DNA from: Thermodesulfobacteriota bacterium
GTDB lineage: Bacteria; Desulfobacterota; Desulfarculia; JACQYL01
Reading direction: 5' to 3'
Assembly (NCBI GenBank): GCA_963675595.2
Contig: CAXXLZ010000002.1
Coordinates: 3,360,001-3,424,000, forward strand
DNA: 64,000 bases
Shown: positions 13,993-31,227 of the stretch, piece by piece
How positions within the stretch are numbered: position 1 is the first letter of the stretch
Layout of the letters: every line of letters starts with the position of its first letter
Program-made: the position numbers and the translations under genes
Notes under the pieces: generated by a model
What the model was told of the DNA's origin: nothing
The model's database searches: none
The model's input: only the letters and a program-made list of their open reading frames with translations

Positions 13993-15147
13993 TCAGCCTT
14001 GACGCAAATGATCCAGGATGAACGCCGCGGCCCTGTCCAAGGCGCCCGGTTCTCCCAAGCCGGCGGCTACATTGCGAAGGTCTCTCCTCATCTGCATCCG
14101 TCTTTCAGGGTTTTCCAGAATCGAAAGCGCTAATGTGGAGAGTTTGTCCGGACGGGCGGCGTATTGAATGAGTTCCGGCACGATGTGTCTGCCGGCAAGC
14201 AAATTGGGCAACCCCGAAGTGGTGGAATGCATGCGGCCGGTCTGAACCAGGAGATTGACCACACGCCAAGTGACTTGAGAAACGGCGGTGAGGACGATCA
14301 TGGGGATTCCCAGGAGCGTCGCTTCCAGGGTTGCCGTGCCCGAACAGAGAATCGTCAGATCGCTCGCGGCCATGGCCTGCATGCTGTTGGTCGTCAATAT
14401 GGGCGGCGGGTCCAAATCCCGCTCTCCGGCCATCCTCTCGATGGTCGCCTGGAGAAAGCGGTCGCTCACCGGCAACACGAATCGGATCGACGGATTCGCG
14501 GCGACCATGAGCTGAGCGGCATCCAGCAGGACGGGACCCAGGGATCCGACTTCCTGGGTTCGGCTGCCGGGCAGCAATGCAACCACCGTCGCGTCGTCTC
14601 CTATCCCCAATGCTTTCCGGGCATCGCGCCTCCCGGGGTCATCGACCTCTTGTATCATGTCCCGGAGGTAGTGGCCTACGTAGGTGGCTCTGCCCATCGC
14701 CCTATGGTAAACTTGGTGTTCCTCGGGAAAAGAGGTTAGAATCCGGTCGTAGCTTCGGGCGATGGGAACCGCCACGCAACGCCATACCCATACCTGGGGA
14801 GGGAAATAGGAAAAAGTGAGGATTCCTCGCGACTTCAACAAGCGGGCGAGAACGAGATTGAAAAAATCGTGCCCGATGAGCACGACAGCCGAGGGAGTGT
14901 ATTCCCGGACACGGGAAAAGATTGCCTTGAACGCCCTCAACAGACCGGGAATGGTGGCCAGGGGCTCCGTAATGCCGGCGGAACCAAGATGGGCGGTTCC
15001 GTAAAGGATTTCCACGCCCGCGGTTCTCATGTGAAAACCGCCCGTTCCCGAGATGGAAACATCCGGGCACCGGGCATACAGCGCTCGTGCGAGGTGACCC
15101 CCAATGATGTCTCCCGATACTTCCCCTGTACTTATCAGTAGTTCCAT
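13993..15147 (-). CDS. lpxB: Lipid-A-disaccharide synthase (stand-alone LpxB, possibly a paralog)
   Basis: GEVSGD, PPQVWVW, FPEE, VGH, LLPGSR..E, SGTATLE, LPNLLAG and VPELIQ motifs. Probable start ATG 15147 (ORF track 15306). Confidence 0.88.
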   Translation of the reverse strand: MELLISTGEVSGDIIGGHLARALYARCPDVSISGTGGFHMRTAGVEILYGTAHLGSAGITEPLATIPGLLRAFKAIFSRVREYTPSAVVLIGHDFFNLVLARLLKSRGILTFSYFPPQVWVWRCVAVPIARSYDRILTSFPEEHQVYHRAMGRATYVGHYLRDMIQEVDDPGRRDARKALGIGDDATVVALLPGSRTQEVGSLGPVLLDAAQLMVAANPSIRFVLPVSDRFLQATIERMAGERDLDPPPILTTNSMQAMAASDLTILCSGTATLEATLLGIPMIVLTAVSQVTWRVVNLLVQTGRMHSTTSGLPNLLAGRHIVPELIQYAARPDKLSTLALSILENPERRMQMRRDLRNVAAGLGEPGALDRAAAFILDHLRQG

Positions 15148-15361
15148 CCGTCCGTGTTGATCCGATGCAGGGTGGTGGTTGGCGATTGGAGCGATGGAGC
15201 TTCCGAAATCGTTTTGGACGGAATGCCCCGGAAAGCTTTCAAACGGCGCGTACGCTGGAACCCGTGACGCCCTCTCACATGATGTTGCAGCCTCGGACGA
15301 GGCCAAGCGCTCGATAATGTAGGCAAAACGCTACGGCCTGTCAATGATGGAGCCTGTGGAA

Positions 15362-17094
15362 CAGCGATTCTCGGTGTTGAGAATTTGGGTGTGTTTAGGG
15401 AGATTTTCCCTTTGTAGAGATGCGAGGATAGGTGGAATGAGGGTCCGATTTTGCGCATGAGAGGGGAAAAAGCGTGGTGAGGCAGAGGAAAGACCGGAGT
15501 TTTTTGGACCGAAGGCGCACCGGTCCCGTCAAAGTTCGGACCTTTGTTTGTGACCGATGGGTTATAGGAGGCCTTTTCGCCTCAGGGGGGGCGGGCGCTT
15601 TCGGGGTCCAGGACCAAAGCCAACAGGTCTTCCCACGACTCGAATACCAGAATCCGGATCGTGCAACGCAGCTGATTCCAGTACTCGGTTCGAGCACTGA
15701 ATCCCGCCCGGCATTTTTGGTACAAGGGGTCCGTCAACTCGAAAATCTGATGGAAGAAAAAAGCCACCAAGTTCAGAAGGAAAAAGACGTAAGAGAGTTG
15801 ATTCTTGCCGTGACCGAAATTGTGCTCGATATGATACCCTTGGTTCTTCAGTGTATTGAATCCTTCGTTTTCGATTTTCCATCGGGCTCTGCCGATCCTG
15901 ACCAGTTCCGCCACGTTTTCCGCGTCAACCGGCATGTCCGTGACCCAGCTGTTCCGGTAGGTGATCTTTCCTCCATTCTCCAGACGGTAGGCAAAAAAAT
16001 GGAGGTCGGGGGCATCTTCGTTTCCGTTGAGAGGCACGCCATGGACCCATTCGTAGCTATGCACCCGTTTCTTGTCGTCGGTGATCTCCAGGCCCGCGAT
16101 TTCTTGCATCCCCCGGAGTTCTTCGATCCACTCGAAGAGCACTTTGTGGTCCGCGGGTTTGGCGACCAGCACAAAGGACATGCTCGCCCGCTTCAGCTCG
16201 GCGATGAAAGGCTGTTTGGAATACAGTCCGTCACCGCCGATAATGATGTTGAGTTTGGGATGGTCCCGGCGGATGGCTTTCAATATCCGCTTCCCCGCGT
16301 TGATCTCACAATCCTGTTTTTGGACTCCATCCTTGTTCTGGATCGATTCCGGAGCCAAAGGCACGACTTGACGGCGATCCGGGTGGACCAGAGCCGCTTG
16401 CAGGATTTGATGGTGGTAGCGAATCCGTCCTTTGGAGGATTTTTGAACTAGACATCCGGGACAATGGATGGTTTCCGAGGAGAAATATTCCGACCCGTCG
16501 ATCACAATGAGGTATCGGCCATCGAGAACCTGAAACGATTCCAGATGCTTGCCTCGCTGCAAGCGTCGGAAGAAATCGGAGAAGACGGCCTTGATCTCTC
16601 CCGGATCACTCGCGTCGATCACGTCCCGCAGTTGCGTGTCCCCGGGCATCTCCGTCACGGAGAACAAGGTCTTGAGGTTGTCGCGGTGGGTCCGTTCCTT
16701 CAGTCTGCGTTGAAACTGCAGGAGCGAGGGGTCCTGAAAGTACATCATGGCAAAGGCGCTCATCAGACAATCGTGCAAAGAATAAACCGTCCGTCCCCCT
16801 CGCGGGTCCCCGACCTGCTCGAACCGACGGGACAGCGCCTTTCTCAAAGACACGAAGCTGAGGTGCTTCTTCATGTGCACCCTGGTAACCTCTACATATA
16901 GTATTCAATCTAATAAAGGCTACCATATATACACCAAAAGATCTACTTTAATTTCATACCTAATTCCAATAGGTTATGATCCTTCCGAAAGAAGGCTGTA
17001 CTCGAACCGGCATCGCCGCTTTACGAAAAAATATTCTCGAATCAGCCTTATGTCCCTCGGCTTCGCCGACTATCTTTTTCACCGGGAATTGCTG
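15362..17094 (-). mobile_element. Insertion sequence (1733 bp, DDE transposase, ISNCY/IS4-like)
   Basis: Imperfect TIRs CAGCGATTCTCGGTG / CAGCAATTCCCGGTG; 9-bp TSD CCTGTGGAA at 15353-15361 and 17095-17103. Confidence 0.9.
15582..16880 (-). CDS. DDE transposase
   Basis: N-terminal DPR...YSLHD; IDGS, GDGLY and RARWKIENEGFNTLK motifs. Confidence 0.92.
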   Translation of the reverse strand: MHMKKHLSFVSLRKALSRRFEQVGDPRGGRTVYSLHDCLMSAFAMMYFQDPSLLQFQRRLKERTHRDNLKTLFSVTEMPGDTQLRDVIDASDPGEIKAVFSDFFRRLQRGKHLESFQVLDGRYLIVIDGSEYFSSETIHCPGCLVQKSSKGRIRYHHQILQAALVHPDRRQVVPLAPESIQNKDGVQKQDCEINAGKRILKAIRRDHPKLNIIIGGDGLYSKQPFIAELKRASMSFVLVAKPADHKVLFEWIEELRGMQEIAGLEITDDKKRVHSYEWVHGVPLNGNEDAPDLHFFAYRLENGGKITYRNSWVTDMPVDAENVAELVRIGRARWKIENEGFNTLKNQGYHIEHNFGHGKNQLSYVFFLLNLVAFFFHQIFELTDPLYQKCRAGFSARTEYWNQLRCTIRILVFESWEDLLALVLDPESARPP

Positions 17095-17161
17095 CCTGTG
17101 GAAGGGGGATATTCTGAGAGAAGCGTCGTCGTCGAAAGAACACGGTCGCGCGGCAGGGAGC

Positions 17162-18067
17162 GTGTCGCGGATCAAGGCCGTTCACCTGCTTGAGGCTTGT
17201 TTGGTGATTCCTGTTGCCGGCATGGTGTCATGGTGCCCTCCATGGATCATCCGAGCCATGGCGAGGGGGATCGCCATGGTGATCGTTCAGTTTCCTTGGA
17301 GAGCCAAAGATCACGCCTTTCACAACCTGGATCATATATACGGCGGCGAGGCGCCGAATATGAGAGAAAAGAAACGGATCGTCCGGAAATTGGTGGAGAA
17401 CCTGATCGTCCAATTCTTCGAATTCGTAGGGATTCACAAGATAAAGAAAAAGAACGTTTTTCGGCAATTCGAGGTGCGCAATCGGGCGGCTTTGGACCAA
17501 GCCCTCACGGAAGGCAAGGGGGCCCTCGCGGTAACGGCTCACCTCGGAAACTGGGAGGGCGTGGCCCGGGTGGGCAAAGTCCTTGGATACGACGTGGGAG
17601 TGATCATCGGTCGTCAATGGAACCCCATTACGGATCGATGGCTGAGATGGATCCGGGAAAGCAGGGGGCAGGTCGCCTGCTACTACAAAGACACGGACCT
17701 CTTGACGCATGCGATATCCCATCTCAAGCGCAATGGGATTCTGGCCGTCATGGCGGATGAGATGGAATATCGTAAACCCTTTTATACGCCGTTTTTCGGA
17801 TGTGATTTTCCCGCGCCGACGGGTATAGCCTTACTCCATTTGCGTTACGGCGCACCCATTTTGTTCTTTTTTTGCTTCAAGGACGGCAATAAGAAGTACG
17901 GAATCGAAATCGACGGGCCCTATCATTTCGGTGGAAGCGGGCATTATGAGGAAGACCGGAGGGTCGTGATTCGTTTTGTGTATGATCGGCTGGAAAAGGA
18001 GATTAAAAAGCATCCCGATCAATGGTTCAATCTGTTCCGATCTCTCCCGGAAGGTCCTGTAAACTGA
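17162..18067 (+). CDS. LpxL/LpxP-family lipid A acyltransferase, copy 1
   Basis: AHLGNWE, MADE, PFFG and HPDQWF motifs. GTG 17162 follows AGGGAG; the ORF-track start at 16976 lies inside the IS. Confidence 0.85.
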   Translation: MSRIKAVHLLEACLVIPVAGMVSWCPPWIIRAMARGIAMVIVQFPWRAKDHAFHNLDHIYGGEAPNMREKKRIVRKLVENLIVQFFEFVGIHKIKKKNVFRQFEVRNRAALDQALTEGKGALAVTAHLGNWEGVARVGKVLGYDVGVIIGRQWNPITDRWLRWIRESRGQVACYYKDTDLLTHAISHLKRNGILAVMADEMEYRKPFYTPFFGCDFPAPTGIALLHLRYGAPILFFFCFKDGNKKYGIEIDGPYHFGGSGHYEEDRRVVIRFVYDRLEKEIKKHPDQWFNLFRSLPEGPVN

Positions 18068-18071
18068 GGGC

Positions 18072-19835
18072 TCAGACGTGTAAGGGTTTGGAGTCCGAAG
18101 AGGAAAGTGCGCAGTATCTCCGGTAGAGCCCGTCACGCTCAAGTAGTTCCGCATGACGGCCTTGTTCGACAATGCGTCCCTCTTCCAAGACGAGGATCCT
18201 GTCCGCCTCCCTTGTGGTGGACATACGATGCGCAATGATGAAGACGGTTCGGCGTTTCCGAAGGGCCGACAAGGAACGCCGGATGAGCTGGTCCGACTCG
18301 GGGTCCAAGGCGGAAGTGGGTTCGTCCAGAATCAGAATGGGACATTGCGTGAGAAAAGCCCGGGCAAGTGCGATTCTCTGCCGTTGACCGCTGGAGAGCA
18401 GAATGCCGAAGGGACCCACCGAGGAATCGTAGCCTTGCGGCAGCTTACGGGCGAATTCGTCCACGTGGGCCGCACGGGCTGCGGCGAGAACCTCTTCATG
18501 GTCGGCTCCGGGTTTGGAAAAGGCGATATTCTCCGCCAGAGACGCGTCAAACAGCACCGGTTCCTGGGGCACATAGCCTATTTGGCTGCGCAGGCCGGCG
18601 ATCTGGAATTGCGAAATATCCCGGCCGTCCACGAGAATCGATCCGGAATCGGGTTCGAGAAAACGCAGAAGCAAACCCACCAAGGTGGACTTGCCGGCTC
18701 CGCTGGGTCCGACGATGGCCAGTATCTCTCCGGGGGACGCCTCAAAGACTAGATTGGACAGCCGGAACGCGGTACCGTAAGCAAAGTTTACTTGATTGAA
18801 ACGGATGTGGCCCTCCACCGGGGGGAACGGAGGAAGCGAAACGTCGTTCACCGCTTCGGACTGCGTTTCGAGAAGTTCATCAATCCGGTCCATGGCTCCG
18901 TATGCTTTCCCCAAGTATCCGAATGCGCGGGAAATTTCGTCCACGGGGTGAATGATGAGCAGCAGTGCGGCGAAGACCACGCTCAAATTCTCAATGGCCA
19001 GTTTATGGGAGAAGACCATGGCCCCGGACCCAAGGGCGAGAATGCCGATGGATGCGAAAGTCACGCAGGAAACCACCGCGGGATTTAAAGCCCTCCATTT
19101 GTCGCGGCTGTTGAAAGCGTCCACGGTCTGCCGGTTCAGATTCCCGAATCGTTCCTCCACCATTGCCTCGCGCCCGTAGGATTTAATCTCTTTGACGCCT
19201 CGGAGCATTTCTTCAAGAGCGCCGTTCAGCCGGCTCGTTCGGGCCTGGGCCGTCTTGGTTCTTTCACGAATTCGATTTCCCGTGAAATGCAGGACCAGGC
19301 CCATGGGCGACAGGATCAACAACGTCCCCACGGTGAGCAGCCACGAATGCACGAGCATCACCATCATCAGTGCGAAGACCACGAGGAGATTGGGAACCAG
19401 GACCAGCAGTCCGGAATGCAGCCCTTCACAAAGGATATCCGTATCGGAGGAAAGTCGGGTGATCATATCGCCCAACCGATGATGCTGGTAACTCCGATAA
19501 GGAAGGAAGAGACATTTGTTGAAAAGTTCGGACCGGATTTCGCCGCCGGCTTCGTTGCTGAGTTTGAAGGAGGCGTAGTCTCTCTTGAACGTGGTGTACA
19601 GGATCAGGACCAGCAGAACGGCTCCCAGAGCCACATGGTGCGTCAGGCGTTCGGGGTCCGGATTCTCGAGAATGAGTCCGGTCAGAGCTCTTCCCCAGAA
19701 GGGCGCGAGTACAAGGCAGGAGGTGGAAACCGTGGTGAAGAGCAAGAAACGAAGGAGTTCCCATCGCCGACCCCACAGGAGGTTCGCAAGGGTCTTCATA
19801 TGGTGGGGCGTCTGCATGACGGTGTGTTGATCCAT
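18072..19835 (-). CDS. MsbA-like ABC exporter (TMD + NBD)
   Basis: N-terminal TMD; GPSGAGKS, SSGQRQR, LDEPTS and IAHR motifs. Confidence 0.9.
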   Translation of the reverse strand: MDQHTVMQTPHHMKTLANLLWGRRWELLRFLLFTTVSTSCLVLAPFWGRALTGLILENPDPERLTHHVALGAVLLVLILYTTFKRDYASFKLSNEAGGEIRSELFNKCLFLPYRSYQHHRLGDMITRLSSDTDILCEGLHSGLLVLVPNLLVVFALMMVMLVHSWLLTVGTLLILSPMGLVLHFTGNRIRERTKTAQARTSRLNGALEEMLRGVKEIKSYGREAMVEERFGNLNRQTVDAFNSRDKWRALNPAVVSCVTFASIGILALGSGAMVFSHKLAIENLSVVFAALLLIIHPVDEISRAFGYLGKAYGAMDRIDELLETQSEAVNDVSLPPFPPVEGHIRFNQVNFAYGTAFRLSNLVFEASPGEILAIVGPSGAGKSTLVGLLLRFLEPDSGSILVDGRDISQFQIAGLRSQIGYVPQEPVLFDASLAENIAFSKPGADHEEVLAAARAAHVDEFARKLPQGYDSSVGPFGILLSSGQRQRIALARAFLTQCPILILDEPTSALDPESDQLIRRSLSALRKRRTVFIIAHRMSTTREADRILVLEEGRIVEQGRHAELLERDGLYRRYCALSSSDSKPLHV

Positions 19836-19886
19836 AGCGTCGGCTCGTATGACGCTCGGTGAAATTGATGTTTCTATGGGTCGGCC

Positions 19887-21182
19887 TTAAAGGCTTTCAA
19901 GGACCGCGCAGCACGATTGTCCCGCCATGCCGTAGTCGTAGGAAGCCACGGCGAAGCGCTTTCGCGTGCATGGGCGGTGTTCCGCACTGATGTTCATTCG
20001 GGCGAATGCCGGATCCGGACTCCTGAAGTTGAGCGTTCCGGGGATCAGGCCGTTGGATGCCGCCATGATGCCTATAATTACTTCAGACAGATCGCCGGCC
20101 GCCGCCATGTGCCCGAAATGAGGCTTGAGCCCGCACAACGGCACGCTTCTTCCCCCCTTCTCGGAAATTGCCTGCACGGACGCCAGCTCCGATGCATCCC
20201 CGTCTTTTGTTCCATTGCCGTGCAGTACCAAGAATCCCAGATCGTCGAGGGCGGTGCCGGAAAGTTCCAAGGTCTTCGCCAAGGTTTTTTCCAGCACTCG
20301 GGGAGGAGTCGAACCGTCCACTCCATCGACGGGATATTCGAATCCGCCCGTCGTGCCGAGCACACGGGCGAGGGGTTTCGTTCCCCGCTTGAGTGCACGT
20401 TCCGCATTTCCGATGACCAGGGCGGCGCCCCCTTCTCCCGGAATAGTCCCATCCCGTTCGGCGTCGAAAGGGCTGAAGGAATGTATTCCGCGGCGGCATT
20501 GGGAGATCGAGCCGTTTCCGTACATTTCGAAATGACCCACGGGCGCAAGCAGGCTCGCAGCCGCCACAACCAACGCGATATCCACCAGATCGAGCTCAAT
20601 GCTCCTGACGGCGAGTTCCAACGCCTGAAGTCCGAAAGGCGGAACCGCAATGAGACTCGTGTTGGCCCCCTTGCATTCGAAGGCGTGGGACAAGAAACTG
20701 AAGGCGTTGTTCGGCAGGGTGTTCAGCAGTATGAAAGGCCATACGTCATGCAATACGGAGCTGTTGAACGTACGGTAGTCGAAATCCGCGGTGTGCTCCT
20801 TGGTGGCCTTGCGAAGTACCGAACTGTAGGCCCCACCACCCACCTGTGCATTATCACCGCAACTGATGAATAATCCTCTTCTTTCGGGAGGGGTTGCTTG
20901 AAACGCGTCACCCGACCGACGGACCGCCTGGTCTGCGGCCAGGTAGCCGAAAATGGAGGATCGGTTCAGGTATTTGACTTGACGCGCAAGTTGGGGCGGT
21001 ATGGATTTCACCACGTCGGCCATCGGGATTCTGCCGGCGTATTGCAGTTCCGGAGGAGCGTTCTCCATGGGCTGATGGCCAATGCCGGAGTCATGACGCA
21101 GGACTTTCTCCCAGCTTTCCATGAGGTCGGAAGCCGGCGGGGTGATCAGTCCCATTCCGATAACCGCATTGGAGTCGAGCAT
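19887..21182 (-). CDS. Beta-ketoacyl synthase-like protein lacking the catalytic Cys (CLF-like)
   Basis: KS fold (PFDAERDG..PGEGGAA, HGNGT, GHMAAAG, PGTLN); AVPPFGLQA replaces TACASG. Start ATG 21182 abuts the fabZ stop. Confidence 0.8.
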   Translation of the reverse strand: MLDSNAVIGMGLITPPASDLMESWEKVLRHDSGIGHQPMENAPPELQYAGRIPMADVVKSIPPQLARQVKYLNRSSIFGYLAADQAVRRSGDAFQATPPERRGLFISCGDNAQVGGGAYSSVLRKATKEHTADFDYRTFNSSVLHDVWPFILLNTLPNNAFSFLSHAFECKGANTSLIAVPPFGLQALELAVRSIELDLVDIALVVAAASLLAPVGHFEMYGNGSISQCRRGIHSFSPFDAERDGTIPGEGGAALVIGNAERALKRGTKPLARVLGTTGGFEYPVDGVDGSTPPRVLEKTLAKTLELSGTALDDLGFLVLHGNGTKDGDASELASVQAISEKGGRSVPLCGLKPHFGHMAAAGDLSEVIIGIMAASNGLIPGTLNFRSPDPAFARMNISAEHRPCTRKRFAVASYDYGMAGQSCCAVLESL

Positions 21183-21183
21183 C

Positions 21184-21639
21184 TCAGGAAAGACCGGCGA
21201 GGCGGGCGAGAATGTTGTAGGTGCGCCTGCACTCGTCCGGGTCAAAGAGCTGAGCAAGGGAAATCAACCCGCCGCTGAATTCAGCATAGGCATTCTTCTT
21301 ACCATCGATTTTCCCAACGGCGCGGAAAGCCGGTTCTTGCTTCTCGCTCCCCGGGAGTGAGGAAACCTCGATTTCAATCCGATCGCCGGGAAGGGCAACA
21401 TCGTAAAACTTGCACCTGGCGACTCCCGTCAAGACGAACCAGTTCTCGAAATCGGAAGACTTGGCCTCGAACCAGCCGGCGCACTGGACGAAAGCCTCCA
21501 GCACCAAGGAACCGGGAACCACTGGATATCGGGGAAAATGGAACTGGAGGTAATCTTCACTCATGGTGACGTTTTTTGTTCCTTTGATAAGGATTCCCGG
21601 TTGAAAGTCGGTGATGCGGTCCAACAGAAAATATCTCAT
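21184..21639 (-). CDS. FabA/FabZ-like 3-hydroxyacyl-ACP dehydratase
   Basis: FLLDRI, KNVT..E, HFP..PVVPGSLVLE and PGD motifs. Confidence 0.88.
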   Translation of the reverse strand: MRYFLLDRITDFQPGILIKGTKNVTMSEDYLQFHFPRYPVVPGSLVLEAFVQCAGWFEAKSSDFENWFVLTGVARCKFYDVALPGDRIEIEVSSLPGSEKQEPAFRAVGKIDGKKNAYAEFSGGLISLAQLFDPDECRRTYNILARLAGLS

Positions 21640-21664
21640 AAATGCAATTCCTGTCCGAGCGGGG

Positions 21665-22441
21665 TCACAGGCTCAAACCGCCATCTATGGCGATGGCCTG
21701 CCCGGTGATATAGTCGGCGAAGTCGGAAGCCAGGAACAGCACGAGAGGAGCCACGTCGGCGGGCATTCCCAATCGACCCGCGGGTATTCTGGACAGTATC
21801 TCGGATTCCGCCGATCCGAGTATCCTACGGGTCATATCCGAACGGACGAACCCCGGCAGCACCGCGTTGACCTGGATATTCTTTCCGGCAAGCTCCGAAG
21901 CGCAGGCGATGGTAAAGGAAATCAAGCCGCCTTTGGATGAGGCGTAAGCGCAGTTTCCGCGAGTTCCTCGGATTGCCGCAACGGAAGAGATGTTGATGAT
22001 CTTTCCATAATGACGAACCACCATAAGCTCGGTCGCATGCCGGGAACAGAGGAAAGCTCCTCGAAGATTCACGTCGTGTACTTCATCCCAATCCTTGGTC
22101 TTCGTGGTCATCAGAAGTCGATCCCTGGTGATGCCGGCATTGTTCACGAGGATGTCGAGTTTTCCATATCGGGCACGAATAAGCTCGAACAGAGATGCCA
22201 CCTTTTCCGGATCGCCCACATCGGCTTGAAGCGTTTCCGCTGCGAAGCCTTCACGCAGAAGTGACTGTTTCAACTCTTCCGCCGCTTCCGAAGACCTTCC
22301 GTAATTGATCAGGGTCACGGCACCGGCGTGAGACAGGGCAACCGATATCTGTCCGCCGATTCCTCTGGAACCACCTGTAATAAGCGCTATTTTGCCCGAT
22401 AGATCTATTTTCACAATACGTCCGCTCTCGTCTCGCCGCAC
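21665..22441 (-). CDS. fabG: 3-oxoacyl-ACP reductase (FabG-like)
   Basis: GGSRGIG, NNAGITRD, YASSK, PGFV and YITGQ motifs; start may be GTG 22414. Confidence 0.85.
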   Translation of the reverse strand: MRRDESGRIVKIDLSGKIALITGGSRGIGGQISVALSHAGAVTLINYGRSSEAAEELKQSLLREGFAAETLQADVGDPEKVASLFELIRARYGKLDILVNNAGITRDRLLMTTKTKDWDEVHDVNLRGAFLCSRHATELMVVRHYGKIINISSVAAIRGTRGNCAYASSKGGLISFTIACASELAGKNIQVNAVLPGFVRSDMTRRILGSAESEILSRIPAGRLGMPADVAPLVLFLASDFADYITGQAIAIDGGLSL

Positions 22442-22487
22442 GCGGGCATGTCCAAAGTCGTGAGTTCAAAGGCTCCGAAATAGGCGT

Positions 22488-22995: not shown

Positions 22996-24258
22996 TCAGT
23001 CGTTGCCGGTGCCCAAACACAAGCACGCGTTCTGGCCGCCGAATCCAAAGGAGTTGGATAGGGCCACTCGGTGCTTCCTTTTAATACGGCGTTCCGGAAC
23101 ATACCATAAATCGCACTTGGGATCAGGAAATTCGTAATTGATGGTGGGCAGGATGGTGTCTCGCTCCATGCCCATCAGAGTCAGTATGCATTCGATGACG
23201 CCGGCGGCGCCCAAAGCGTGCCCCAGCATGGACTTGTTGGAGCTTATCGGTAGGGCGGCCGCTCGGGGGCCGAAAAGCTCTTTGACGGCCTGTGTTTCCG
23301 CAACATCGTTCTTGATGGTGGCGGTGCCGTGCGCATTGATATATTCCACGTCGCTGGGGCGAAGTCCGGCGTCTGCGAGGGCCAGCTTCATGACCTGAAC
23401 GGCTCCTTCCGACCTGGGATGGATGTCCGTGATGCGGAAGGCGTCCGCGGTGGAACCGTATCCCAGAATTTCGCCTAAAATGGGAACTCCACGCGTGCGC
23501 GCATGATCCAGGTCTTCGAGAACCACCACTGCGGCCCCTTCGGACAGGACGAAACCGTTCCGCTTTCGGTCGAAAGGTCTCGACGCTTGCCCGGGTGACG
23601 CGTAGCTTTCGGAGAGCGTTCTGAGAAGCAGAAAACCCGTGAAATTGAAAGGATCGACCGGAGCGTCTCCTCCTCCGGCGAGCATCACATCCGCCGCACC
23701 GCATTGGATCAGGTGATAGGCTTCTCCGACGGCTTGAGCGCCGGCGGCGCAAGCGGAACCGATACAGAAGTTCGGCCCTTTGCATTGAAATCGTTGCGCG
23801 ATCAAAGAGGCGGCTACGTCGGGTCTCCTGGTTGTGAAATCCTGAAATGGATACCCGCCGTCCTTTTCGAGGCGAACCAGATCCCAATGCCCCGAAGTAT
23901 CACGGAAGCGATGCAGATAGGCAATTTCGGCAAGGGACGTCATTTCTCCGTGGCTTGCCAAACAAACACCGATCCTCTCCCTGGTCTCGATTTGGAGCAA
24001 TTGCGCCTGATTTGCGGCCTCATCGACCGCCGTGTTGAGAAGTCCGGCAATGCGGGAAAAGATATCGATTCTGAAAGGAGGCAGTCCTTCGGGGCGTAGT
24101 ATCCAATCATCGAGAACCTCTCCCGCTATGGTACAGGGAAGACCTTGCGTGTCGAAAGAGCGAATATGGTCGATTCCCGACGAGCTCGCCGAGCATTTGG
24201 CGAAGGTTTCCTCGGCGTTTCTTCCCAGGCAGGTGAGCATTCCATAGCCGGTAACCAC
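22996..24258 (-). CDS. fabF: Beta-ketoacyl-ACP synthase II (FabF-like)
   Basis: SACAAG, INAHGT, GHALGAAG and SNSFGFGG motifs (complete Cys-His-His triad). The frame extends upstream as KRRVVVTG, so the true start may be non-canonical near 24280. Confidence 0.9.
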   Translation of the reverse strand: MVTGYGMLTCLGRNAEETFAKCSASSSGIDHIRSFDTQGLPCTIAGEVLDDWILRPEGLPPFRIDIFSRIAGLLNTAVDEAANQAQLLQIETRERIGVCLASHGEMTSLAEIAYLHRFRDTSGHWDLVRLEKDGGYPFQDFTTRRPDVAASLIAQRFQCKGPNFCIGSACAAGAQAVGEAYHLIQCGAADVMLAGGGDAPVDPFNFTGFLLLRTLSESYASPGQASRPFDRKRNGFVLSEGAAVVVLEDLDHARTRGVPILGEILGYGSTADAFRITDIHPRSEGAVQVMKLALADAGLRPSDVEYINAHGTATIKNDVAETQAVKELFGPRAAALPISSNKSMLGHALGAAGVIECILTLMGMERDTILPTINYEFPDPKCDLWYVPERRIKRKHRVALSNSFGFGGQNACLCLGTGND

Positions 24259-24278: not shown

Positions 24279-24836
24279 TCAGGATATCCCTTTCTGTTGA
24301 TGTTCCAGAAGCCAGGTCTGGACGAGGTCATCTTCGCTTCGGAAGATGGGGGGCTCATTGCAGGAACCGCAAACGATGCGGGTTCCATCCTGCAATATCC
24401 AGGAATCGCGGGCGCAGTGGACGCATCTGTCCGGTAAGGTATCCAGAAGCCAAAGGACCCGGTCGACAATGGAGTCCACCGTGATCAGCGCAAGAAGGTC
24501 TTCCATGCGCATTCCCGGGCGAAGTGCGTCGACGTCGGGGAATCTCAGCTTTAACAAGGACAGGGCGGCCGGAGTGAGTCCGCCGTCTTCGTCCAAAGCG
24601 AACCCTTCCCCGAAAATCTCCTCCATGTGGTCCAGGGCGGAGTAACGGGCCATTCTCAATCCGAAGGCCTGTTCCACATGGTAGCTGATATCCAGGAAAT
24701 CGAGGGATTCGGCGTCCAGCTCCGTGGTCAGAACGGTTTCGGGTCGTATCAGGTCTTTTTCCACGGTCAAAGCATGAGCAATGGCATCGGACACGACCCG
24801 GAAAACCTGTTCTCTTTCGATCAGCGTCTGCGGCAT
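24279..24836 (-). CDS. Atypical acyl carrier protein with internal insertion and C-terminal CxxC-x14-CxxC domain
   Basis: LDAESLDFLDI Ppant motif and ITVDSIV helix IV; CVHC...CGSC; ATG 24836 follows GGGAG. Confidence 0.85.
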   Translation of the reverse strand: MPQTLIEREQVFRVVSDAIAHALTVEKDLIRPETVLTTELDAESLDFLDISYHVEQAFGLRMARYSALDHMEEIFGEGFALDEDGGLTPAALSLLKLRFPDVDALRPGMRMEDLLALITVDSIVDRVLWLLDTLPDRCVHCARDSWILQDGTRIVCGSCNEPPIFRSEDDLVQTWLLEHQQKGIS

Positions 24837-25172: not shown

Positions 25173-25946
25173 TTAGGCCAACGGCCTGTACAGGGTATTC
25201 CCGAGCCCCCGATCGGCCACGATGGTCTGGCCGCTGATTCCACGGCTCGTATGATCACACAAAAAGGCCACCACGTCGGCGAGTTCCTCTGGATCCATAA
25301 AGAGTTCTTCGGGTATTCGAGTCATGTCCTTCAAGTAATATCGCAGCACGCGCAGAGAATCCGTTCTCACAAGACCGCCGCAAACCGCATTGACGGATAT
25401 GTTCCTATGCCTTAAGCTCTCCGCGCAGTCTCTGACAACCGCTTCCATGGCCGCTTTCATACTCCCCAACGGATATTGCGGGTTGTAGAAGCGACTCCCC
25501 AGGCTTGAAATGAAAACGATCTTACCTTGAGTCCGTTCAAGCAGGGGAACGCCCAGTTGTATGCAGAAGATGTTTCCCAGGAAGTTGGTATCGACCAGTT
25601 GCCTCAGGTCTCGCTCGAAAAGCTTCTCGATGGGTTTGAAAGGGGCTCTCGCCGCGTTGAGGATCAGGAAGTCCAACCGTCCGAATTCGGTTTCGGCCGC
25701 CTCCATCATCAGCCGAACCGATGCCTTGGACGAAATGTCCGCTTGAACCAGAATCGCGCGTCCCCCCAGCCCGTGAACGTAAGAGACGAGTTCCTCGGCC
25801 TGGACAAGGGACGAGCCCGCCGCCTTCCTGGAGGTGACCACCAAGTCGGCTCCCAAGGAGGCGAGCTTGGCGGCGACGGCGCGGCCGATGCCTCGGGAGC
25901 TTCCGGTGACCAGAGCGACTTTGCCTTTAAAACAGAGGCGATTCAT
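25173..25946 (-). CDS. SDR oxidoreductase, FabL-like enoyl-ACP reductase
   Basis: GSSRGIG, NAA, ISSLGS, Y-x5-K (YPLGSMKAA) and GQTIVADRG motifs; first gene of the FAS block. Confidence 0.75.
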   Translation of the reverse strand: MNRLCFKGKVALVTGSSRGIGRAVAAKLASLGADLVVTSRKAAGSSLVQAEELVSYVHGLGGRAILVQADISSKASVRLMMEAAETEFGRLDFLILNAARAPFKPIEKLFERDLRQLVDTNFLGNIFCIQLGVPLLERTQGKIVFISSLGSRFYNPQYPLGSMKAAMEAVVRDCAESLRHRNISVNAVCGGLVRTDSLRVLRYYLKDMTRIPEELFMDPEELADVVAFLCDHTSRGISGQTIVADRGLGNTLYRPLA

Positions 25947-26065
25947 GCGGCCGATCTTGGAGATTCGAAAAGAAAACAGGCATATCCGGTTCCAGGACTC
26001 GAACAGAAGGAATAATCCTAACACAATTTTTCAATGCAGTTGACCCTTTTTTGAGGCGGTTAAGC

Positions 26066-27022
26066 GTGCGCGGAAAACTTCTGAGTTTCAGGACCATTGC
26101 CTACCTGTTCGAAGCGGCGGGAGCCGTGGCGGCGGGCACCCTGATATCCTTGCTGCCGAGGCGATTCCGGCGGATATTTTCAATTGTTGCCGGTACCGTC
26201 GGCTTCCATCTGGATCGACGGGACAGGAAATGGGCTTACCGGAATCTCGATATCATTTACGCGGACAATCCCCTGGACAAGAAGGAAAAAGACCGAATCG
26301 TCAAAGAACTTTTTATCAACATAGCGACGGGAGCGTTCGACTTTTCAAAACTGAATGAAGTGACCCCCAATAATTTCGATCAATTTTTTTATTATGGGAA
26401 TTTTCAAGTGATAGGGCAGGCCTTGTCTCAAGGCAAGGGAGCCATCGCGGTGAGCGCCCATTTCGGCAATTGGGAGTACTATGGAAGCATCGCCGCCAAG
26501 TACATGAACAACATCACCGCCGTGATACAACGGCAATTCAATCCGTTCACGGATTCTTATCTCACATGGATTCGTGAGAAGAGGGGCAACATCAGGTGCC
26601 TGTATCAGGATCGACCCTCGATGTACCAGGAAATAGGCAGAGAATTACGAGAAAACAGAATTCTTGTTTTCCTCGCAGATCAAAGACAATATCGTAAGCC
26701 GATTTTGGTACCGTTTTTCGGCAGACCGGCGGAGACTTCGGACGGAGTCGCCATACTACATCTTTGGTACGGCGCTCCCATTGTCTTGGCGTTTTCCGAG
26801 ATTCAACCGGACGGCAAACAAATCCTGAGGTTGGATGGTCCCTATAATTTCAAGCCCGGCGGAAGCCCACAAGAGGATTGTCAAGAAATCATGAGCTTCA
26901 TTCATGGGAAATTCGAGAAAGTGATCTCGCGGCATCCGGAGCAATGGTTTTCCTTGTTGACTCCGAGATGGGAGCTGAGCCAAGAAACCCTCAGAAGTCA
27001 CCCCTCATTGGGAGACGATTGA
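26066..27022 (+). CDS. LpxL/LpxP-family lipid A acyltransferase, copy 2
   Basis: AHFGNWE, LADQ, VPFFG and HPEQWF motifs; paralog of 17162..18067. Confidence 0.85.
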   Translation: MRGKLLSFRTIAYLFEAAGAVAAGTLISLLPRRFRRIFSIVAGTVGFHLDRRDRKWAYRNLDIIYADNPLDKKEKDRIVKELFINIATGAFDFSKLNEVTPNNFDQFFYYGNFQVIGQALSQGKGAIAVSAHFGNWEYYGSIAAKYMNNITAVIQRQFNPFTDSYLTWIREKRGNIRCLYQDRPSMYQEIGRELRENRILVFLADQRQYRKPILVPFFGRPAETSDGVAILHLWYGAPIVLAFSEIQPDGKQILRLDGPYNFKPGGSPQEDCQEIMSFIHGKFEKVISRHPEQWFSLLTPRWELSQETLRSHPSLGDD

Positions 27023-27106
27023 AAGGCGTTGGGAGTTGCTTACTGATCATCCCTCGCCAACCCCCCAGTGGCTTCCGGTGCGAAAATGGGTAATGTCCCC
27101 ATTTAG

Positions 27107-27135
27107 TTGACACGTCAAAGCGTCTTGATTATAAT
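27107..27135 (+). promoter_or_regulatory. Perfect sigma70 consensus promoter overlapping the IS1 left TIR
   Basis: TTGACA-17 bp-TATAAT. Confidence 0.85.
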
Positions 27136-27172
27136 TGCCCCGGAGTGACTTCATGTTTCAAGGGGGCAATCG

Positions 27173-27658
27173 GTGACCGAACTTGAGAGATGCTTCTGTC
27201 CGAACGAAAAGTGCAAGAATTACGGGTTGAGTAATCAAGGCAACATCGCGGTTCGCGGCAAGTACGGCAAGGACAAAAGTCGCGATCTCCTTTACTGTCG
27301 CACCTGCGGGAAGCGTTTCGCCGCCACTCAATCCAGCGCCCTGTTTGGCCTGCATCTGCCGGCGGAAACGATTCGAGAGATCATCCATCATGCAGCCGAG
27401 GGCGTAGGAGTCCGGGCCACGGCGCGTCTGCTGGCATTGGACAAGGATACGGTAAATCGGGTGATCCTGCGTGCCGGCGAGCATTGCGCGTCCGTGCTAT
27501 CCAGTCTGTTGACCTCGCTGGAGCTGACGGAGGCACAACTGGATGAGCTGTGGACCTTTGTAAAAAAAAGGAACATTCTGGCGCCGCCCAAGACCTCGAG
27601 GAGCGATACGGGCGGACATGGATCTGGACGGCCATCGATGTCCCCACACGATTGCTGA
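27173..27658 (+). CDS. IS1 InsA-like ORF (Zn finger + HTH)
   Basis: CPNEKC...CRTC and the HTH GVGVRATARLL; LDELW lies before the slippery site. Confidence 0.85.
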   Translation: MTELERCFCPNEKCKNYGLSNQGNIAVRGKYGKDKSRDLLYCRTCGKRFAATQSSALFGLHLPAETIREIIHHAAEGVGVRATARLLALDKDTVNRVILRAGEHCASVLSSLLTSLELTEAQLDELWTFVKKRNILAPPKTSRSDTGGHGSGRPSMSPHDC

Positions 27659-28269
27659 TCACGTTCTGGATTGGCGGACGAGAATTGGACGACGCCCGAA
27701 GAATGCTTCAGGATTTGACCGCTCGCTGCCGGAGTAAGCCATTGTTCGTATCGGACGAGCTGCCTCATTATGTCACGATGTTGGCGGAGTTCTTCCACAA
27801 GCAGGTCCCAGTGATGCCGACGGGGAAACCGGGCCGGCCCAGGAACCCCGAACGAGTGGTCGATGCTGATTTGGATTACGCCACAGTGCACAAAACCCGC
27901 GAGGGCGGCAGGGTGGTTAAGGTGGAGCGCCGAGTGGTTTTCGGCAGTGAGCAGAGCGTACACGAGCGGTTGGAGGGTTCGCCCAGCCACACAATCAATA
28001 CCGCCTTTGTCGAGCGCTCCAATCTGCACTGGCGTCTGTGGGATGCTCATTTGGTTCGCAAATCCCTTACATTCGCACGCTCGTGGCGCTGGCTTCGGGC
28101 CAAGTTCGCCATCTGTGTGGCCTGTTATAATTTTGTTCGACCCCATGGAACGCTCAGCCGTAGGGCAAACCGGACATTTCAGCCCAAGACCCCAGCGATG
28201 GCCGCGAACGTGACCGACCATCCCTGGTCGTTCTTAGAATTGTTGGCGTATCCGGTATCATGTCAATAA
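27550..28269 (+). CDS. IS1 InsB-like DDE domain, expressed by -1 frameshift
   Basis: -1 frame relative to InsA; A8G run at 27562-27570; WIWTAID, SDEL and NTAFVERSN motifs. Confidence 0.85.
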   Translation: MDLCKKKEHSGAAQDLEERYGRTWIWTAIDVPTRLLITFWIGGRELDDARRMLQDLTARCRSKPLFVSDELPHYVTMLAEFFHKQVPVMPTGKPGRPRNPERVVDADLDYATVHKTREGGRVVKVERRVVFGSEQSVHERLEGSPSHTINTAFVERSNLHWRLWDAHLVRKSLTFARSWRWLRAKFAICVACYNFVRPHGTLSRRANRTFQPKTPAMAANVTDHPWSFLELLAYPVSCQ

Positions 28270-28305
28270 TATGGGGACAGTACCCGAAAATGGAGGTTTG
28301 AGCAT

Positions 28306-28672: not shown

Positions 28673-29611
28673 TCAGTTCTTATGGAGCCCCCGACCCATT
28701 CCGGTCTTTCGGGCAATCCAGGTGCCGGCCAGCAGGATCACCAGAAGGAACGAGATCGTTCCCCAGGGGGTCAGAGACGAGACGCTGGTCGGGGTCGTGT
28801 CCGCGTCCCCGCCGCCGCTTCCCCAGGTACCCCCGGAGCACTGCTCGATCATTTGAGTCCCGCCGCACGTGACGTCGATGCAGTTGTTGTCCCCTATCGG
28901 TACGAAGACGTCAAAAGGCCCTTGTCGCGTAAACCCCCCCGAGTACATCCACACCTTAACCATGCCGGGTATGATCCAATAGTTTTTCCCGCCGGATTGA
29001 TGCAGTTCGAGGGGGTGGTCCACCACCACATTGGGGCAGTCCGCGCCCGTTTGGATGTTCACGGTACCCTCCACCCGATCCGGCGTGCCGTCGTTGTCGG
29101 TGTCCAGCAGGTCCACCGTGGTGAATGCGGGGTTCTGGGCGCAGGGGCTCTCTTCTTGGTATAAGTATTCAAAGCTGATCATGCTGTAGTTGTCGGCGCC
29201 GTCCTGTTTGGTTCCGGTGATCTTGAGCATGTAGTCCGGGTGGTACTCATTCATGCTGTGCCAGCCTCCCGTATGGGAGTGTATCTCTTGGATGGAAGCG
29301 GAATTGCCGTTTTCGGAGTACTCAAACAGGAGGCCCTCCAAATAGGTCGGTTGCTCGGCGGGATCCGGCCACACTCCTCCGTGGGCGGTCACGATTCCGA
29401 CATTGGCCGCCTTGTCCACCTGAAGCGTCCAGTACGCGTCTCCCGCATCGGGCTGGTGGTTGTTGTTGGTGTCGATGTAAACACGATCGACGCCTGAGAC
29501 CTCACAGTCCTCCAGTGCGGCTGAAGCACCGGAAGCGATGCAGAGAAATAGTACCGATAGGGTGATCAGCGCCCCCAACCATGGTTTCCGAAACTGAACG
29601 ACGCCTCGCAT
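28673..29611 (-). CDS. Secreted protein with IPTL-CTERM-like sorting signal
   Basis: Signal peptide, DxNxN/DxDxDG loops, C-terminal VSSLTPWG-TM-RK. ATG 29611 follows GGAGG. Confidence 0.75.
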   Translation of the reverse strand: MRGVVQFRKPWLGALITLSVLFLCIASGASAALEDCEVSGVDRVYIDTNNNHQPDAGDAYWTLQVDKAANVGIVTAHGGVWPDPAEQPTYLEGLLFEYSENGNSASIQEIHSHTGGWHSMNEYHPDYMLKITGTKQDGADNYSMISFEYLYQEESPCAQNPAFTTVDLLDTDNDGTPDRVEGTVNIQTGADCPNVVVDHPLELHQSGGKNYWIIPGMVKVWMYSGGFTRQGPFDVFVPIGDNNCIDVTCGGTQMIEQCSGGTWGSGGGDADTTPTSVSSLTPWGTISFLLVILLAGTWIARKTGMGRGLHKN

Positions 29612-29979
29612 GGTGCCTCCCTCCTCTTGGCAACACTGATAAAGGGGCTCCTCATCCGCCGCATGGATTGGAAGTGGGTCTCGCGGCATGGAATAAGGAC
29701 GATGATAATTCTTCGGAACGACCGCCCCTGCCGAGGGTGCTTCGAATACAATACCAAAGGGTTGATCATAGAGGAACAATAGCCGTCTATTTAGCATTTT
29801 CCAGGAAGTAAGGCCACCAAAAAACGGATCAATTAACGAGAATCTTTCTCATGGAAATATGATTACGGAATTATGTCCAAACGGACTGTAACCTCCCTCC
29901 GATTTGTCGGGAACTTCCGTTAAGTCATTACTCATTCATAGGACCGGCTGTTGACGAAAGTGCAACTGTTATTACGCTA

Positions 29980-31227
29980 TCATCGTGGGGCTACAGGGCC
30001 TTTCGAGGGAGAGGCGGAATCCGGTACCGCAATGGTCTTCAGTATCTCTTCGGCTATGGCGCGGCTCGCTCCGGGTGGGCCCATGCATTGCGGTCCGGCC
30101 GGGGACATGCGATTTCGCAATAAGGGGTTTTCCAAGAGCCGTATGACGGACGAAGCGGCCGATTCAGGATCGTAGGAGCAAGTGATCAGCCCCTTTCGGC
30201 AAGCCTGGGCCTCCCGGTCGAGATAATTGCGCGTTTTCGCGTCCCGAGGAGGCGTCACGACCACGGGCAGACCCAGTCCCATAGCCTGCTGATTCGCGGT
30301 TCCGGCCATGCCCACGGCCAGGATGGAGGAACGAAGCACGTCCGCAAAATGCCCTTTCACAAAGCGTACGGAGCCTCCGCAGGCATGCCGCAGGGAAAGC
30401 ACCAAACCGTTTTCGCGTGATAACGAAGGACTTTCATCCACGGAATACTCGTTCGCCAACGGGCCGGTCATGAGTTGCCTCCGGATTTTGAGCACATTCA
30501 ATCCGTCGTGGGCGGCGAAAAGAAACTCCGGCGGCGGTTTCATCCCGCCACGCGCGTACACTCGAGATACGATGTCCAGCAGAACCAGAGCATTATCTTC
30601 CGCATCCTCCCGGCTTCCGGCAAGCAGGGCCGCGACAGGGGATTCGGGGGAAGTTCCAAAACGCTCGCCCGTTCCTTCCAGACCGTCCATCATGGGATTC
30701 CCGACGTATTTGTTCACGACCCCGGTCCGAGTGAGCTCCTCCGATGTTTCGGCGTCGCGGGGAAAGGTCATCGCGCAATATTGGGCAAGAAGCCGCTTTT
30801 CAAGGAAGTTGTAGCGATACGCGGGCATGAATCGGGATGATTTCGCGCACCCTACGAACAAGAACGGAGTCCCTGTGAGCAATGCGGTAAGAATGACCAC
30901 GATGTCGCCCACGGCGATCACGAGATCAAAGCATCCTCGAAAGTTCAGAGCGGAACGAATCTGGCGAAGGACCACGAGCAGGGCGCCGTGCTCAATGTCC
31001 TTCAAAACGGACCTTACGCCCTGAATGCCCGCGAGGCCTTCGCTGGGCAGGAGATTCTTCGCTCCGACAATGGACACTCCGGTCTTCGTATAACTCCGAC
31101 CTTCGCCCACCATGGGCCAGGCGGAGACTTCCGTTCCGGAAGGCGCGGATTTCAACAGCTCACGGATCAGGTTCCGGGTGATCCGATCTTCGCCGTGTCC
31201 GTTACTGATGAAAAGAATGCGGGTCAT
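29980..31227 (-). CDS. Lipid-A-disaccharide synthase-related GT-B protein
   Basis: SNGHGED, PMVGEG, LPSEG, VGD, AKS, PRD, GNPMMD, LLAGSR and MAGTA motifs, typical of the LpxB-related family common in cyanobacteria. Confidence 0.82.
   Translation of the reverse strand: MTRILFISNGHGEDRITRNLIRELLKSAPSGTEVSAWPMVGEGRSYTKTGVSIVGAKNLLPSEGLAGIQGVRSVLKDIEHGALLVVLRQIRSALNFRGCFDLVIAVGDIVVILTALLTGTPFLFVGCAKSSRFMPAYRYNFLEKRLLAQYCAMTFPRDAETSEELTRTGVVNKYVGNPMMDGLEGTGERFGTSPESPVAALLAGSREDAEDNALVLLDIVSRVYARGGMKPPPEFLFAAHDGLNVLKIRRQLMTGPLANEYSVDESPSLSRENGLVLSLRHACGGSVRFVKGHFADVLRSSILAVGMAGTANQQAMGLGLPVVVTPPRDAKTRNYLDREAQACRKGLITCSYDPESAASSVIRLLENPLLRNRMSPAGPQCMGPPGASRAIAEEILKTIAVPDSASPSKGPVAPR

Follow-up and report, generated by a model that had tools for sequence, protein, structure and literature searches.

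Introduction

The acyl chains of lipid A are thought to be drawn from the general fatty-acid pool carried by AcpP, the known exception being the rhizobial-type AcpXL. Whether a bacterium may keep, beside a complete lipid A pathway, a second fatty-acid synthase reserved for its outer-membrane lipids is the question raised by the locus at 13993-31227 of a 64,000-nt stretch of a Thermodesulfobacteriota genome (hereafter the window; all window coordinates are positions within it). Genes were called from a listing of open reading frames (ORFs) together with Pfam and NCBIfam scans. An earlier interpretation, made from the letters alone and called here the sequence-only reading, had proposed that the locus builds a special acyl chain for an alternative lipid A or a new glycolipid. 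This interpretation is supported by comparative genomics, and we consider, with a probability of roughly 0.55, that the locus represents an accessory outer-membrane glycolipid module organised around a dedicated type II fatty-acid synthase line. The locus points to a private synthase that is unrelated to AcpXL, more complete, and physically tied to LpxL-family genes. The genome, 6.79 Mb long and assembled in 3 contigs, has a dsrA match above the cut-off, consistent with a sulfate or sulfite reducer, and to our knowledge no such second lipid A or synthase system has been studied in sulfate-reducing bacteria.

Organization and Accessory Status of the Locus

Eight co-oriented minus-strand genes make up the core of the locus, in the order FabL-like enoyl reductase (ER), acp2, fabF2, a hotdog-fold gene, fabG2, fabZ2, KSb and msbA2, with gaps that are short or coupled and with every ORF intact (Table 1). 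Plus-strand lpxL_b and lpxL_a bracket this block, and beyond them lie a TIGR03492 gene and lpxB2, respectively. All genes named by the sequence-only reading were found where it had put them. Not mentioned there are the two insertion sequences, the ORF at 28673-29797 (orf374) and the insertion-derived beginning of the lpxL_a ORF. The two bracketing acyltransferase genes are indeed paralogous (36% identical, both PF03279); lpxB2 exceeds the TIGR00215 equivalog cut-off (241.8 vs 190.25 bits) and, as had been claimed, neither lpxA nor lpxD adjoins it; and the gene on the other side, described as LpxB-related, exceeds the curated TIGR03492 cut-off (237 vs 219.2 bits). No FabD, AcpS or FabH is encoded in the locus. 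Three start sites deserve mention: the lpxB2 ORF opens with a TTG at 15306, a Met at ~15147 (MELLISTGEVSGD) being the likelier start; the FabL-like protein probably starts at a Met at ~25946; and the lpxL_a ORF as listed opens with 40 codons of insertion sequence (IS) DNA common to other copies of that element, its true start likely being the GTG at 17162, which aligns with the N-terminus of lpxL_b.

A complete canonical lipid A locus, bamA-lpxD-fabZ-lpxA-lpxI-lpxB-msbA-waaA-lpxK with an LpxL homologue and heptosyltransferases, is present at C2:4030001-4050000 of the same genome, and a housekeeping plsX...fabG-fabF region, at which acpP is not annotated, at ~C2:3590963-3593291. Because both sets occur elsewhere, the 13993-31227 locus is accessory, and its lpx and fab genes are not the sole copies in the genome, a point on which the sequence-only reading depended. 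Window copies share 23-41% identity with their canonical or housekeeping counterparts, the range being 23-34% for LpxB2, LpxL and MsbA2. Specifically, LpxB2 is 30% identical to canonical LpxB (C2:4040660-4041958), which scores higher against PF02684 (302.5 vs ~233 bits), and MsbA2, of MsbA-like architecture, is 34% identical to canonical MsbA.

Catalytic Residues of the Synthase Block

FabF2 retains an intact Cys-His-His triad and scores 389 bits against TIGR03150, which is under the cut-off. Its presumptive partner, the Cys-less ketosynthase (KS) KSb, showed Pro-His-His in the alignment, with Pro at the Cys position and both His retained. The Pro occurs in the window protein and in P0002 (71% identical), and the other 16 family members aligned have Ser. 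A comparable contrast is seen among the dehydratases. FabZ2 retains both His and Glu (NF000582, E 1e-23, under the cut-off), and the second hotdog protein, orthologues of which match PF07977, carries Ala at the FabZ His column with the Glu retained. His and Glu are present in all 66 other dehydratase ORFs of related loci that were aligned, Ala being found solely in the window protein, so the loss of His is special to this sub-lineage; P0214, 73% identical to the window hotdog, is His-less as well. P0002 and P0214 are encoded on one and the same 22,448-bp ENA contig.

The reductases are assigned as follows. FabG2 exceeds the NF009466 cut-off (239.3 vs 222 bits) and falls under that of TIGR01830 (266 vs 297.75 bits). 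The FabL-like short-chain dehydrogenase/reductase (SDR) has FabL (NF005975) as its best NCBIfam match (178.5 bits, E 1.4e-52, under the cut-off of 328) and Bacillus subtilis FabL 3OIC as its best PDB match (E 9e-35); its Tyr-Lys spacing differs from the classical YxxxK.

The acyl carrier protein (ACP) of the block, ACP2, has 185 aa and a zinc ribbon with four Cys. The phosphopantetheine Ser44 of ACP2 and its four Cys (CxxC...CxxC) were invariant in 28 aligned sequences, and the family comprises 572 representative relatives at E ≤ 1e-3. AlphaFold2 predicted a single compact fold with high confidence (mean predicted local distance difference test score, pLDDT, 95.9; predicted template modelling score, pTM, 0.90), in which the modelled ACP bundle is followed by extra helices, a ribbon hairpin and a terminal helix. 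Foldseek searches of the PDB with this model returned ACPs only, aligned over the first 50-60 residues (best E 1.8e-3), and no PDB fold was matched beyond the ACP core.

The KSb Family across Genomes

In the protein collection, KSb had 62 relatives at E ≤ 1e-20. Against genome contigs a single-sequence search returned just one weak match, in Clostridia, and an alignment was needed: with the alignment-based profile, 263 relatives were recovered from species genomes. Of these, the 80 best were examined as loci, many of which end at contig edges. They come mostly from metagenome-assembled genomes (MAGs) of Nitrospirota/Thermodesulfovibrionia, Syntrophobacterales, Desulfarculales and Desulfobacteraceae. 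The typical gene order is FabL-like ER, zinc-ribbon ACP, an active KS (KS1), a first Cys-less partner, hotdog dehydratase, a second KS (KS2), FabG, phosphopantetheinyl transferase (PPTase), FabZ, KSb and an LpxL-family gene. Occurrence among the 80 loci, counted by tblastn and by clustering at ≥45% identity, respectively, was 77 and 73 for FabZ, 69 and 67 for the LpxL-family gene after KSb, 59 and 56 for FabG, 47 and 46 for the hotdog protein, 34 and 27 for FabL, and 33 and 22 for the ACP; PPTase, which was not queried by tblastn, was counted in 50 by clustering.

In the KS tree, KS1, the first partner, KS2 and KSb formed four clades, each with a Shimodaira-Hasegawa-like approximate likelihood ratio test (SH-aLRT) support of 100. 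FabF2 of the window falls in the KS1 clade as sister to the KS1 of locus L013, and the window KSb diverges at the base of the KSb clade (support 100), on a long branch. The gene order of the window agrees with those of L013, L011 and others, and the window copy is without KS2, the first Cys-less partner and the PPTase. From the placement in the KS clades, the window represents a one-pair version of the block, like the Desulfarculales loci L035 and L045.

Near this genome the family is rare. Among 40 relatives one weak KSb match was found (30% identity), and 2 of 400 genomes sampled evenly from the phylum had family members above 600 bits; only such scores were counted, because the search threshold of 1e-60 admitted ordinary FabF (~205-274 bits). 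No close relative of the window's KSb variant was found in two metagenome scans. Taken over its whole range, the KSb-defined block is a widespread uncharacterised family. A literature search, with subscription journals outside its coverage, found no description of a synthase block that joins KSb to LpxL.

Linkage to Lipid A Genes

Both bracketing genes encode proteins of the LpxL family. LpxL_a matched PF03279 with E 1.4e-32 (113.6 bits) and LpxL_b with E 3.3e-35 (122.2 bits). The motif HX4D/E is catalytic in the secondary acyltransferases LpxL, LpxM and LpxP, and HxxxxE is present in both window proteins, as HLGNWE and HFGNWE, respectively. In the LpxL tree the two formed, together with an LpxL of L013, a separate trio with support of 100.

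The sequence-only reading would have been refuted if the synthase block were not linked to lpx genes in other genomes. The link was found: among the 80 loci, 67-69 have an LpxL-family gene after the block, and in Nitrospirota-type loci lpxB (17 loci), waaA (16) and lpxK (13) come next. When five genomes were searched whole, the block-linked LpxL was the sole strong PF03279 gene in four. In loci of the Syntrophobacterales type, genes for MlaC, an MMPL transporter and an OEP protein adjoin the block (9-10 loci each).

The subfamilies of the window itself recur in a smaller set of loci. In L013 the block is followed by MsbA2 (49% identical and, as in the window, the last gene of the co-oriented block), then by lpxL_b (47%) and WaaA. 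L090 has lpxL_b, LpxB2 (47%), an LpxD paralogue, an LpxA paralogue and a family 9 glycosyltransferase (GT9); L091 has the same set with an extra LpxB-like glycosyltransferase (GT); and in L097 lpxL_b, a GT, LpxB2 (48%), an LpxA paralogue and then the synthase block all lie on one strand. The lpxL_b orthologues, of 47-49% identity, adjoin LpxB2 in L090, L091 and L097, and the LpxB2 proteins of these three loci are 47-49% identical to that of the window. In L094, L095 and L098 (Brevinematales, Spirochaetota) lpxL_b-type genes stand within 3.5 kb of relatives of the TIGR03492 protein (26-30% identity), L094 having an O-antigen ligase and a PMT_2 glycosyltransferase in addition, and a weak relative of orf374 (23% over 183 aa) stands beside an lpxL_b-type gene in L092. 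The genomes of the three Desulfobacteraceae MAGs with these LpxB2 loci each encode a canonical LpxB (313-335 bits) as well as an LpxB2-type copy (238-242 bits), and the same pattern is seen here (302.5 and 233 bits).

These linkages allow a broader, tentative proposal, which we regard as possible, though less likely than not. Some sulfate reducers may run a parallel lipid A-type line with LpxB2, two acyltransferases and MsbA2, to which relatives add paralogues of LpxA, LpxD, WaaA and heptosyltransferase; all its acyl chains would come from a private KS/chain-length-factor-type synthase working on a zinc-ribbon ACP, and in many Nitrospirota and Syntrophobacterales the block would be the normal source of secondary lipid A chains. 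In a few Desulfobacteraceae the block does come with second copies of LpxB, MsbA, LpxA and LpxD. If the proposal holds, the outer membrane of such bacteria could contain a second species of lipid A or glycolipid with a chemistry of its own, and outer-membrane lipid diversity in Nitrospirota and Desulfobacterota, mostly uncultured anaerobes, would be larger than assumed. It would also make a new ACP architecture and further pairings of KS with dead KS and of dehydratase with dead dehydratase testable.

Two stand-alone LpxA-like genes (C2:2518380-2519177 and C1:365758-366579) and an LpxD-like gene (C2:1805657-1806640) of the window's genome were considered as partners of the locus and set aside, being alone or in a sugar-modification context; the MAG paralogues are at least as close to the canonical genes as to these extra ones. 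Both stand-alone LpxA-like genes, additional to the canonical lpxA, combine hexapeptide repeats with an Acetyltransf_11 domain. A shortened LpxB-like ORF of 181 aa was observed directly after the block-linked LpxL in G041, a complete Nitrospiraceae MAG chromosome (locus L054, C1:594806-595120); it matches the first 107 profile positions, and a full-length lpxB is encoded elsewhere in that genome.

Comparison with Known Systems

The nearest known counterpart is the rhizobial cluster acpXL-fabZXL-fabF2XL-fabF1XL-adhA2XL-lpxXL (composition from PMC11901934), which makes the very-long-chain fatty acid (C26-C30) of lipid A. For comparison we used the acpXL-lpxXL cluster of Sinorhizobium meliloti (L088) and the aryl-polyene cluster of Escherichia coli CFT073 (L089). 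In one alignment with the window KS proteins, S. meliloti FabF1XL has Cys-His-His and FabF2XL Glu-Ser-His, so that in the rhizobial system, too, one KS of the pair is active and the other Cys-less. Both systems further encode a private ACP, a FabZ of their own and, next to these, an LpxL-family acyltransferase, and their logic is alike: a chain made on a reserved carrier would be passed on to lipid A. The likeness to acpXL-lpxXL on which the sequence-only reading drew therefore stands for the design (private ACP, KS pair, LpxL) and fails for orthology. Window KSb finds no FabF2XL match at E 1e-3; LpxL_a and LpxL_b share 21-22% identity with LpxXL, which does not amount to orthology; ACP2, twice as long as AcpXL, is 35% identical to it over 52 aa; and the XL KS proteins fall outside the four KS clades. 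Furthermore, the window adds a ketoreductase (KR), an ER, a second hotdog protein, an MsbA-like exporter, two acyltransferases, LpxB2 and a 185-aa zinc-ribbon ACP, whereas adhA2XL has no equivalent, no zinc-dependent dehydrogenase being present in 13993-31227. In the KS and LpxL phylogenies that had been called for, XL and aryl-polyene KS proteins lie outside the clades of the window family, and the window LpxL proteins form their own supported group.

Other clusters with a dead KS suggest a third possibility, that the locus is a polyketide-type cluster for a pigment or specialised lipid, aryl-polyene- or ladderane-like and unrelated to lipid A. The aryl-polyene cluster of CFT073 likewise combines a KS and its chain-length-factor partner with two hotdog dehydratases, a FabG-type KR, private ACPs, an LpxL-family lysophospholipid acyltransferase (LPLAT)-type transferase and dedicated export genes. 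It has no enoyl reductase, whereas the window has a FabL-like ER, and it has an acyl-CoA synthetase, a thioesterase, a methyltransferase, a GT2 protein and MMPL and LolA proteins; Pfam and NCBIfam scans of the window found no acyl-CoA synthetase, MMPL or LolA. Nor did these scans find an aryl-starter ligase, thioesterase, methyltransferase, radical SAM or phytoene-desaturase-like gene there. Aryl-polyene KS proteins share 26-32% identity with those of the window and group with other paralogues of this genome. For the anammox 'ladderane' fatty-acid synthase, the abstracts describe a KS/chain-length factor (CLF)-like heterodimer of FabF2 and FabFmut that decarboxylates malonyl-ACP (10.64898/2026.05.19.726425) and an amxFabZ that acts only on its own ACP (PMC10139942). 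That cluster (amxACP, amxFabZ, amxFabF2, amxFabFmut), too, joins an active FabF to a dead homologue and has a private ACP preferred by its own FabZ, and these abstracts offer an experimental precedent for the mechanism proposed below; as described in them, it includes no lpx genes. The radical SAM and phytoene-desaturase-like genes that set the anammox case apart are missing from the window, as noted. PDB chains 9s5h_B and 9s5h_C, which we take to be the anammox pair, score below ordinary FabF with the KSb profile; otherwise the window and the anammox cluster were compared by description only. On this balance a pigment-type cluster is very improbable.

With the late steps of the Raetz pathway (LpxB, LpxL/LpxM, MsbA) the locus shares an LpxB2 that passes TIGR00215, the HxxxxE motif in both LpxL proteins and an MsbA-type architecture. 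It differs in that the window copies form subfamilies of their own, conserved in a few Desulfobacteraceae MAGs.

The same genome encodes a further KS and Cys-less KS pair, with Cys-His-His and Glu-Ser-Glu, at C2:2503914-2506338 (L170). The active member of this pair groups with the ApeO-type KS from the E. coli aryl-polyene cluster; there are radical SAM genes nearby and an RND pump within 10 kb. The region may be a separate cluster for a specialised lipid or a pigment.

Proposed Pathway

For the glycolipid module we propose the following route. Malonyl units would be loaded on ACP2 with the help of the housekeeping FabD and AcpS. FabF2 would carry out condensation, the Cys-less KSb acting as a non-condensing, chain-length-factor-like partner in a putative heterodimer; the pair would prime by decarboxylation or extend a housekeeping acyl chain, and would set the chain length. 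Each cycle would be finished by FabG2, FabZ2 and the FabL-like reductase, FabZ2 probably pairing with the His-less, Glu-bearing hotdog protein in a second putative heterodimer with one intact active site. The resulting saturated or 3-hydroxy chain would never leave ACP2, and, by analogy with AcpXL and LpxXL, it is probably longer than, or otherwise unlike, the bulk fatty acids. LpxB2 would build a lipid A-type disaccharide from the products of canonical LpxA/C/D/I, to which LpxL_a and LpxL_b may then attach the special chain in secondary acylation, and MsbA2 would flip or export the product. FabD, AcpS, LpxA/C/D/I, LpxK and WaaA would all be borrowed from the canonical sets.

Acceptor and Activity of the Window Copy

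The main doubts concern the acceptor, the nature of the chain and the activity of a reduced, IS-bearing copy, and some observations weigh against the module. The product and the two heterodimers are predictions from gene content. MsbA2 lies under both relevant cut-offs (TIGR02203, 404.9 vs 602 bits; TIGR02204, 416.3 vs 780.4 bits). The genome yielded no lpxA or lpxD paralogue that is a clear orthologue of those in L090 and L097. The TIGR03492 gene and orf374 were not linked to the synthase block in any of the 80 KSb loci, and a role for them is suggested only by linkage to the LpxL_b subfamily, in three loci and one locus, respectively; orf374 matched no Pfam or NCBIfam family, and its membership in the system is uncertain.

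With respect to the acceptor, PF03279 also takes in phosphatidylinositol mannoside (PIM) acyltransferases, lysophospholipid acyltransferases and ApeD, and since the family is not specific to lipid A the acceptor could be another molecule. LpxL_a and LpxL_b fall under every NCBIfam equivalog cut-off (best 100 vs 248 bits), do not reach the TIGR02207 subfamily (49.5 and 56.4 bits, respectively, vs 297.8) and share 21-29% identity with LpxXL, canonical LpxL and the block-linked LpxL family. The chain might accordingly serve a different envelope lipid, anchored on a lysophospholipid, an aminolipid or another glycolipid, in the manner of ApeD in aryl-polyene clusters. In that case the nearness of lpx genes would be due to a general clustering of envelope-lipid genes, and LpxB2 and the TIGR03492 protein would use other substrates. 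The MlaC, MMPL and OEP genes beside the block in Syntrophobacterales-type loci recall the aryl-polyene MMPL/LolA export pair, and the condensation-domain, methyltransferase and GNAT genes after the block in L006 and L011 hint at other products. Against this stand the 13-17 loci in which lpxB, waaA and lpxK directly follow, the four of five genomes whose sole strong LpxL is block-linked and whose lipid A still needs acylation, and the association of the LpxL_b subfamily with LpxB2, LpxA/LpxD paralogues, WaaA and GT9. We regard a different envelope lipid as rather unlikely, and a lipid A-type acceptor as the better reading.

The two loci just named deserve a separate remark. In L006 and L011 (Nitrospirota/Thermodesulfovibrionales) the LpxL gene is followed (e.g., L011:12255-16873) by genes for two 356-aa proteins with no assigned family and, further downstream, by those for the condensation-domain protein, a PEMT/ICMT-like methyltransferase and the GNAT protein, which suggests further tailoring of the product.

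Concerning activity, the window copy could also be the decaying, horizontally acquired remnant of a larger two-pair cluster that now makes no product. The second KS/partner pair and the PPTase of most loci are gone; the hotdog His has become Ala and the Ser of KSb has become Pro; KSb and lpxL_a sit on long branches; two IS elements lie within the locus; and the family is rare near this genome, as the single weak match among 40 relatives and the 2 of 400 phylum genomes indicate. The insertions themselves can be followed in some detail. The IS4-like element has five genome copies with ≥99% identity over ~1734 bp and weak NCBIfam IS4/IS701 matches; its window copy lies between the divergent lpxB2 and lpxL_a and is marked by an 8-bp direct repeat, CTGTGGAA, as target duplication. 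The second IS, downstream of lpxL_b, has an identical 1198-bp copy at C2:1001819-1003016 and an 82% copy on C3, with weak IS1/IS6 matches. In two other organisms the locus is represented by contigs of ~94-99% identity, each without one of the elements: a contig of run X8 joins 15351 to 17094 (~99.6% identity) without the IS4-like element, and one of run X3 joins 27066 to 28286 without the second IS. One of these two runs spans the whole locus at ~94-97% identity. These empty sites indicate that both insertions are recent and that the locus has been kept in at least two further organisms.

Decay is thus countered by the intergenic position of both elements and their absence, one each, from another run's contig, and also by intact ORFs with coupled spacing, by the recurrence of the Pro and Ala variants in proteins of a second organism that are 71-73% identical, by the one-pair architecture of the Desulfarculales MAGs L035 and L045, and by the catalytic residues retained in FabF2, FabZ2, FabG2 and both LpxL proteins. 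We therefore judge a non-functional remnant improbable.

In one contig of run X8, from another organism, identity to window 17655-22940 is ~99% over lpxL_a-msbA2 and ~80-85% over KSb-fabZ2-fabG2-hotdog, a mosaic that suggests recombination within the locus.

Features of the Locus and Neighbouring Genes

Table 1. Genes and mobile elements of the locus at window positions 13993-31227.
Feature	Position	Strand	Assignment and supporting matches
lpxB2	13993..15306	-	Second lipid-A-disaccharide synthase; PF02684 232.7 bits, TIGR00215 241.8 bits
IS4-like element	15362..17095	-	Transposase ORF 15582-16880
lpxL_a	17162..18067	+	LpxL-family acyltransferase; PF03279; listed ORF starts at 16976
msbA2	18072..19835	-	MsbA-like ABC exporter, permease and ATPase fused; PF00664 and PF00005
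KSb	19887..21182	-	Cys-less ketosynthase, 431 aa from Met26 of ORF 19887-21257; PF00109 and PF02801
fabZ2	21184..21639	-	3-hydroxyacyl-ACP dehydratase; PF07977
fabG2	21665..22441	-	3-oxoacyl-ACP reductase; TIGR01830, NF009466
His-less hotdog	22488..22889	-	FabZ-like, 133 aa; weak FabZ matches, E 3e-4
fabF2	22996..24258	-	Active ketosynthase, KS1 clade; TIGR03150 389 bits
acp2	24279..24836	-	185-aa ACP with C-terminal CxxC...CxxC ribbon; NCBIfam ACP models E 1.2e-10
FabL-like SDR	25173..26024	-	Probable enoyl-ACP reductase, first gene of the block; NF005975
lpxL_b	26051..27022	+	LpxL-family acyltransferase, divergent from the synthase block; PF03279
Second IS	27087..28284	+	ORFs 27173-27658 and 27550-28269; intergenic
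orf374	28673..29797	-	Hydrophobic N-terminal stretch and C-terminal hydrophobic anchor
TIGR03492 gene	29980..31227	-	GT-B protein, 'lipid-A-disaccharide synthase-related'; 237 bits

Upstream of the locus, the window encodes a TonB-dependent receptor (7887-10619), two DUF4198 proteins (10666-11514 and 11764-12258) and a CBS-domain protein (12969-13595), and an HDOD response regulator is encoded downstream of it at 32159-33463.

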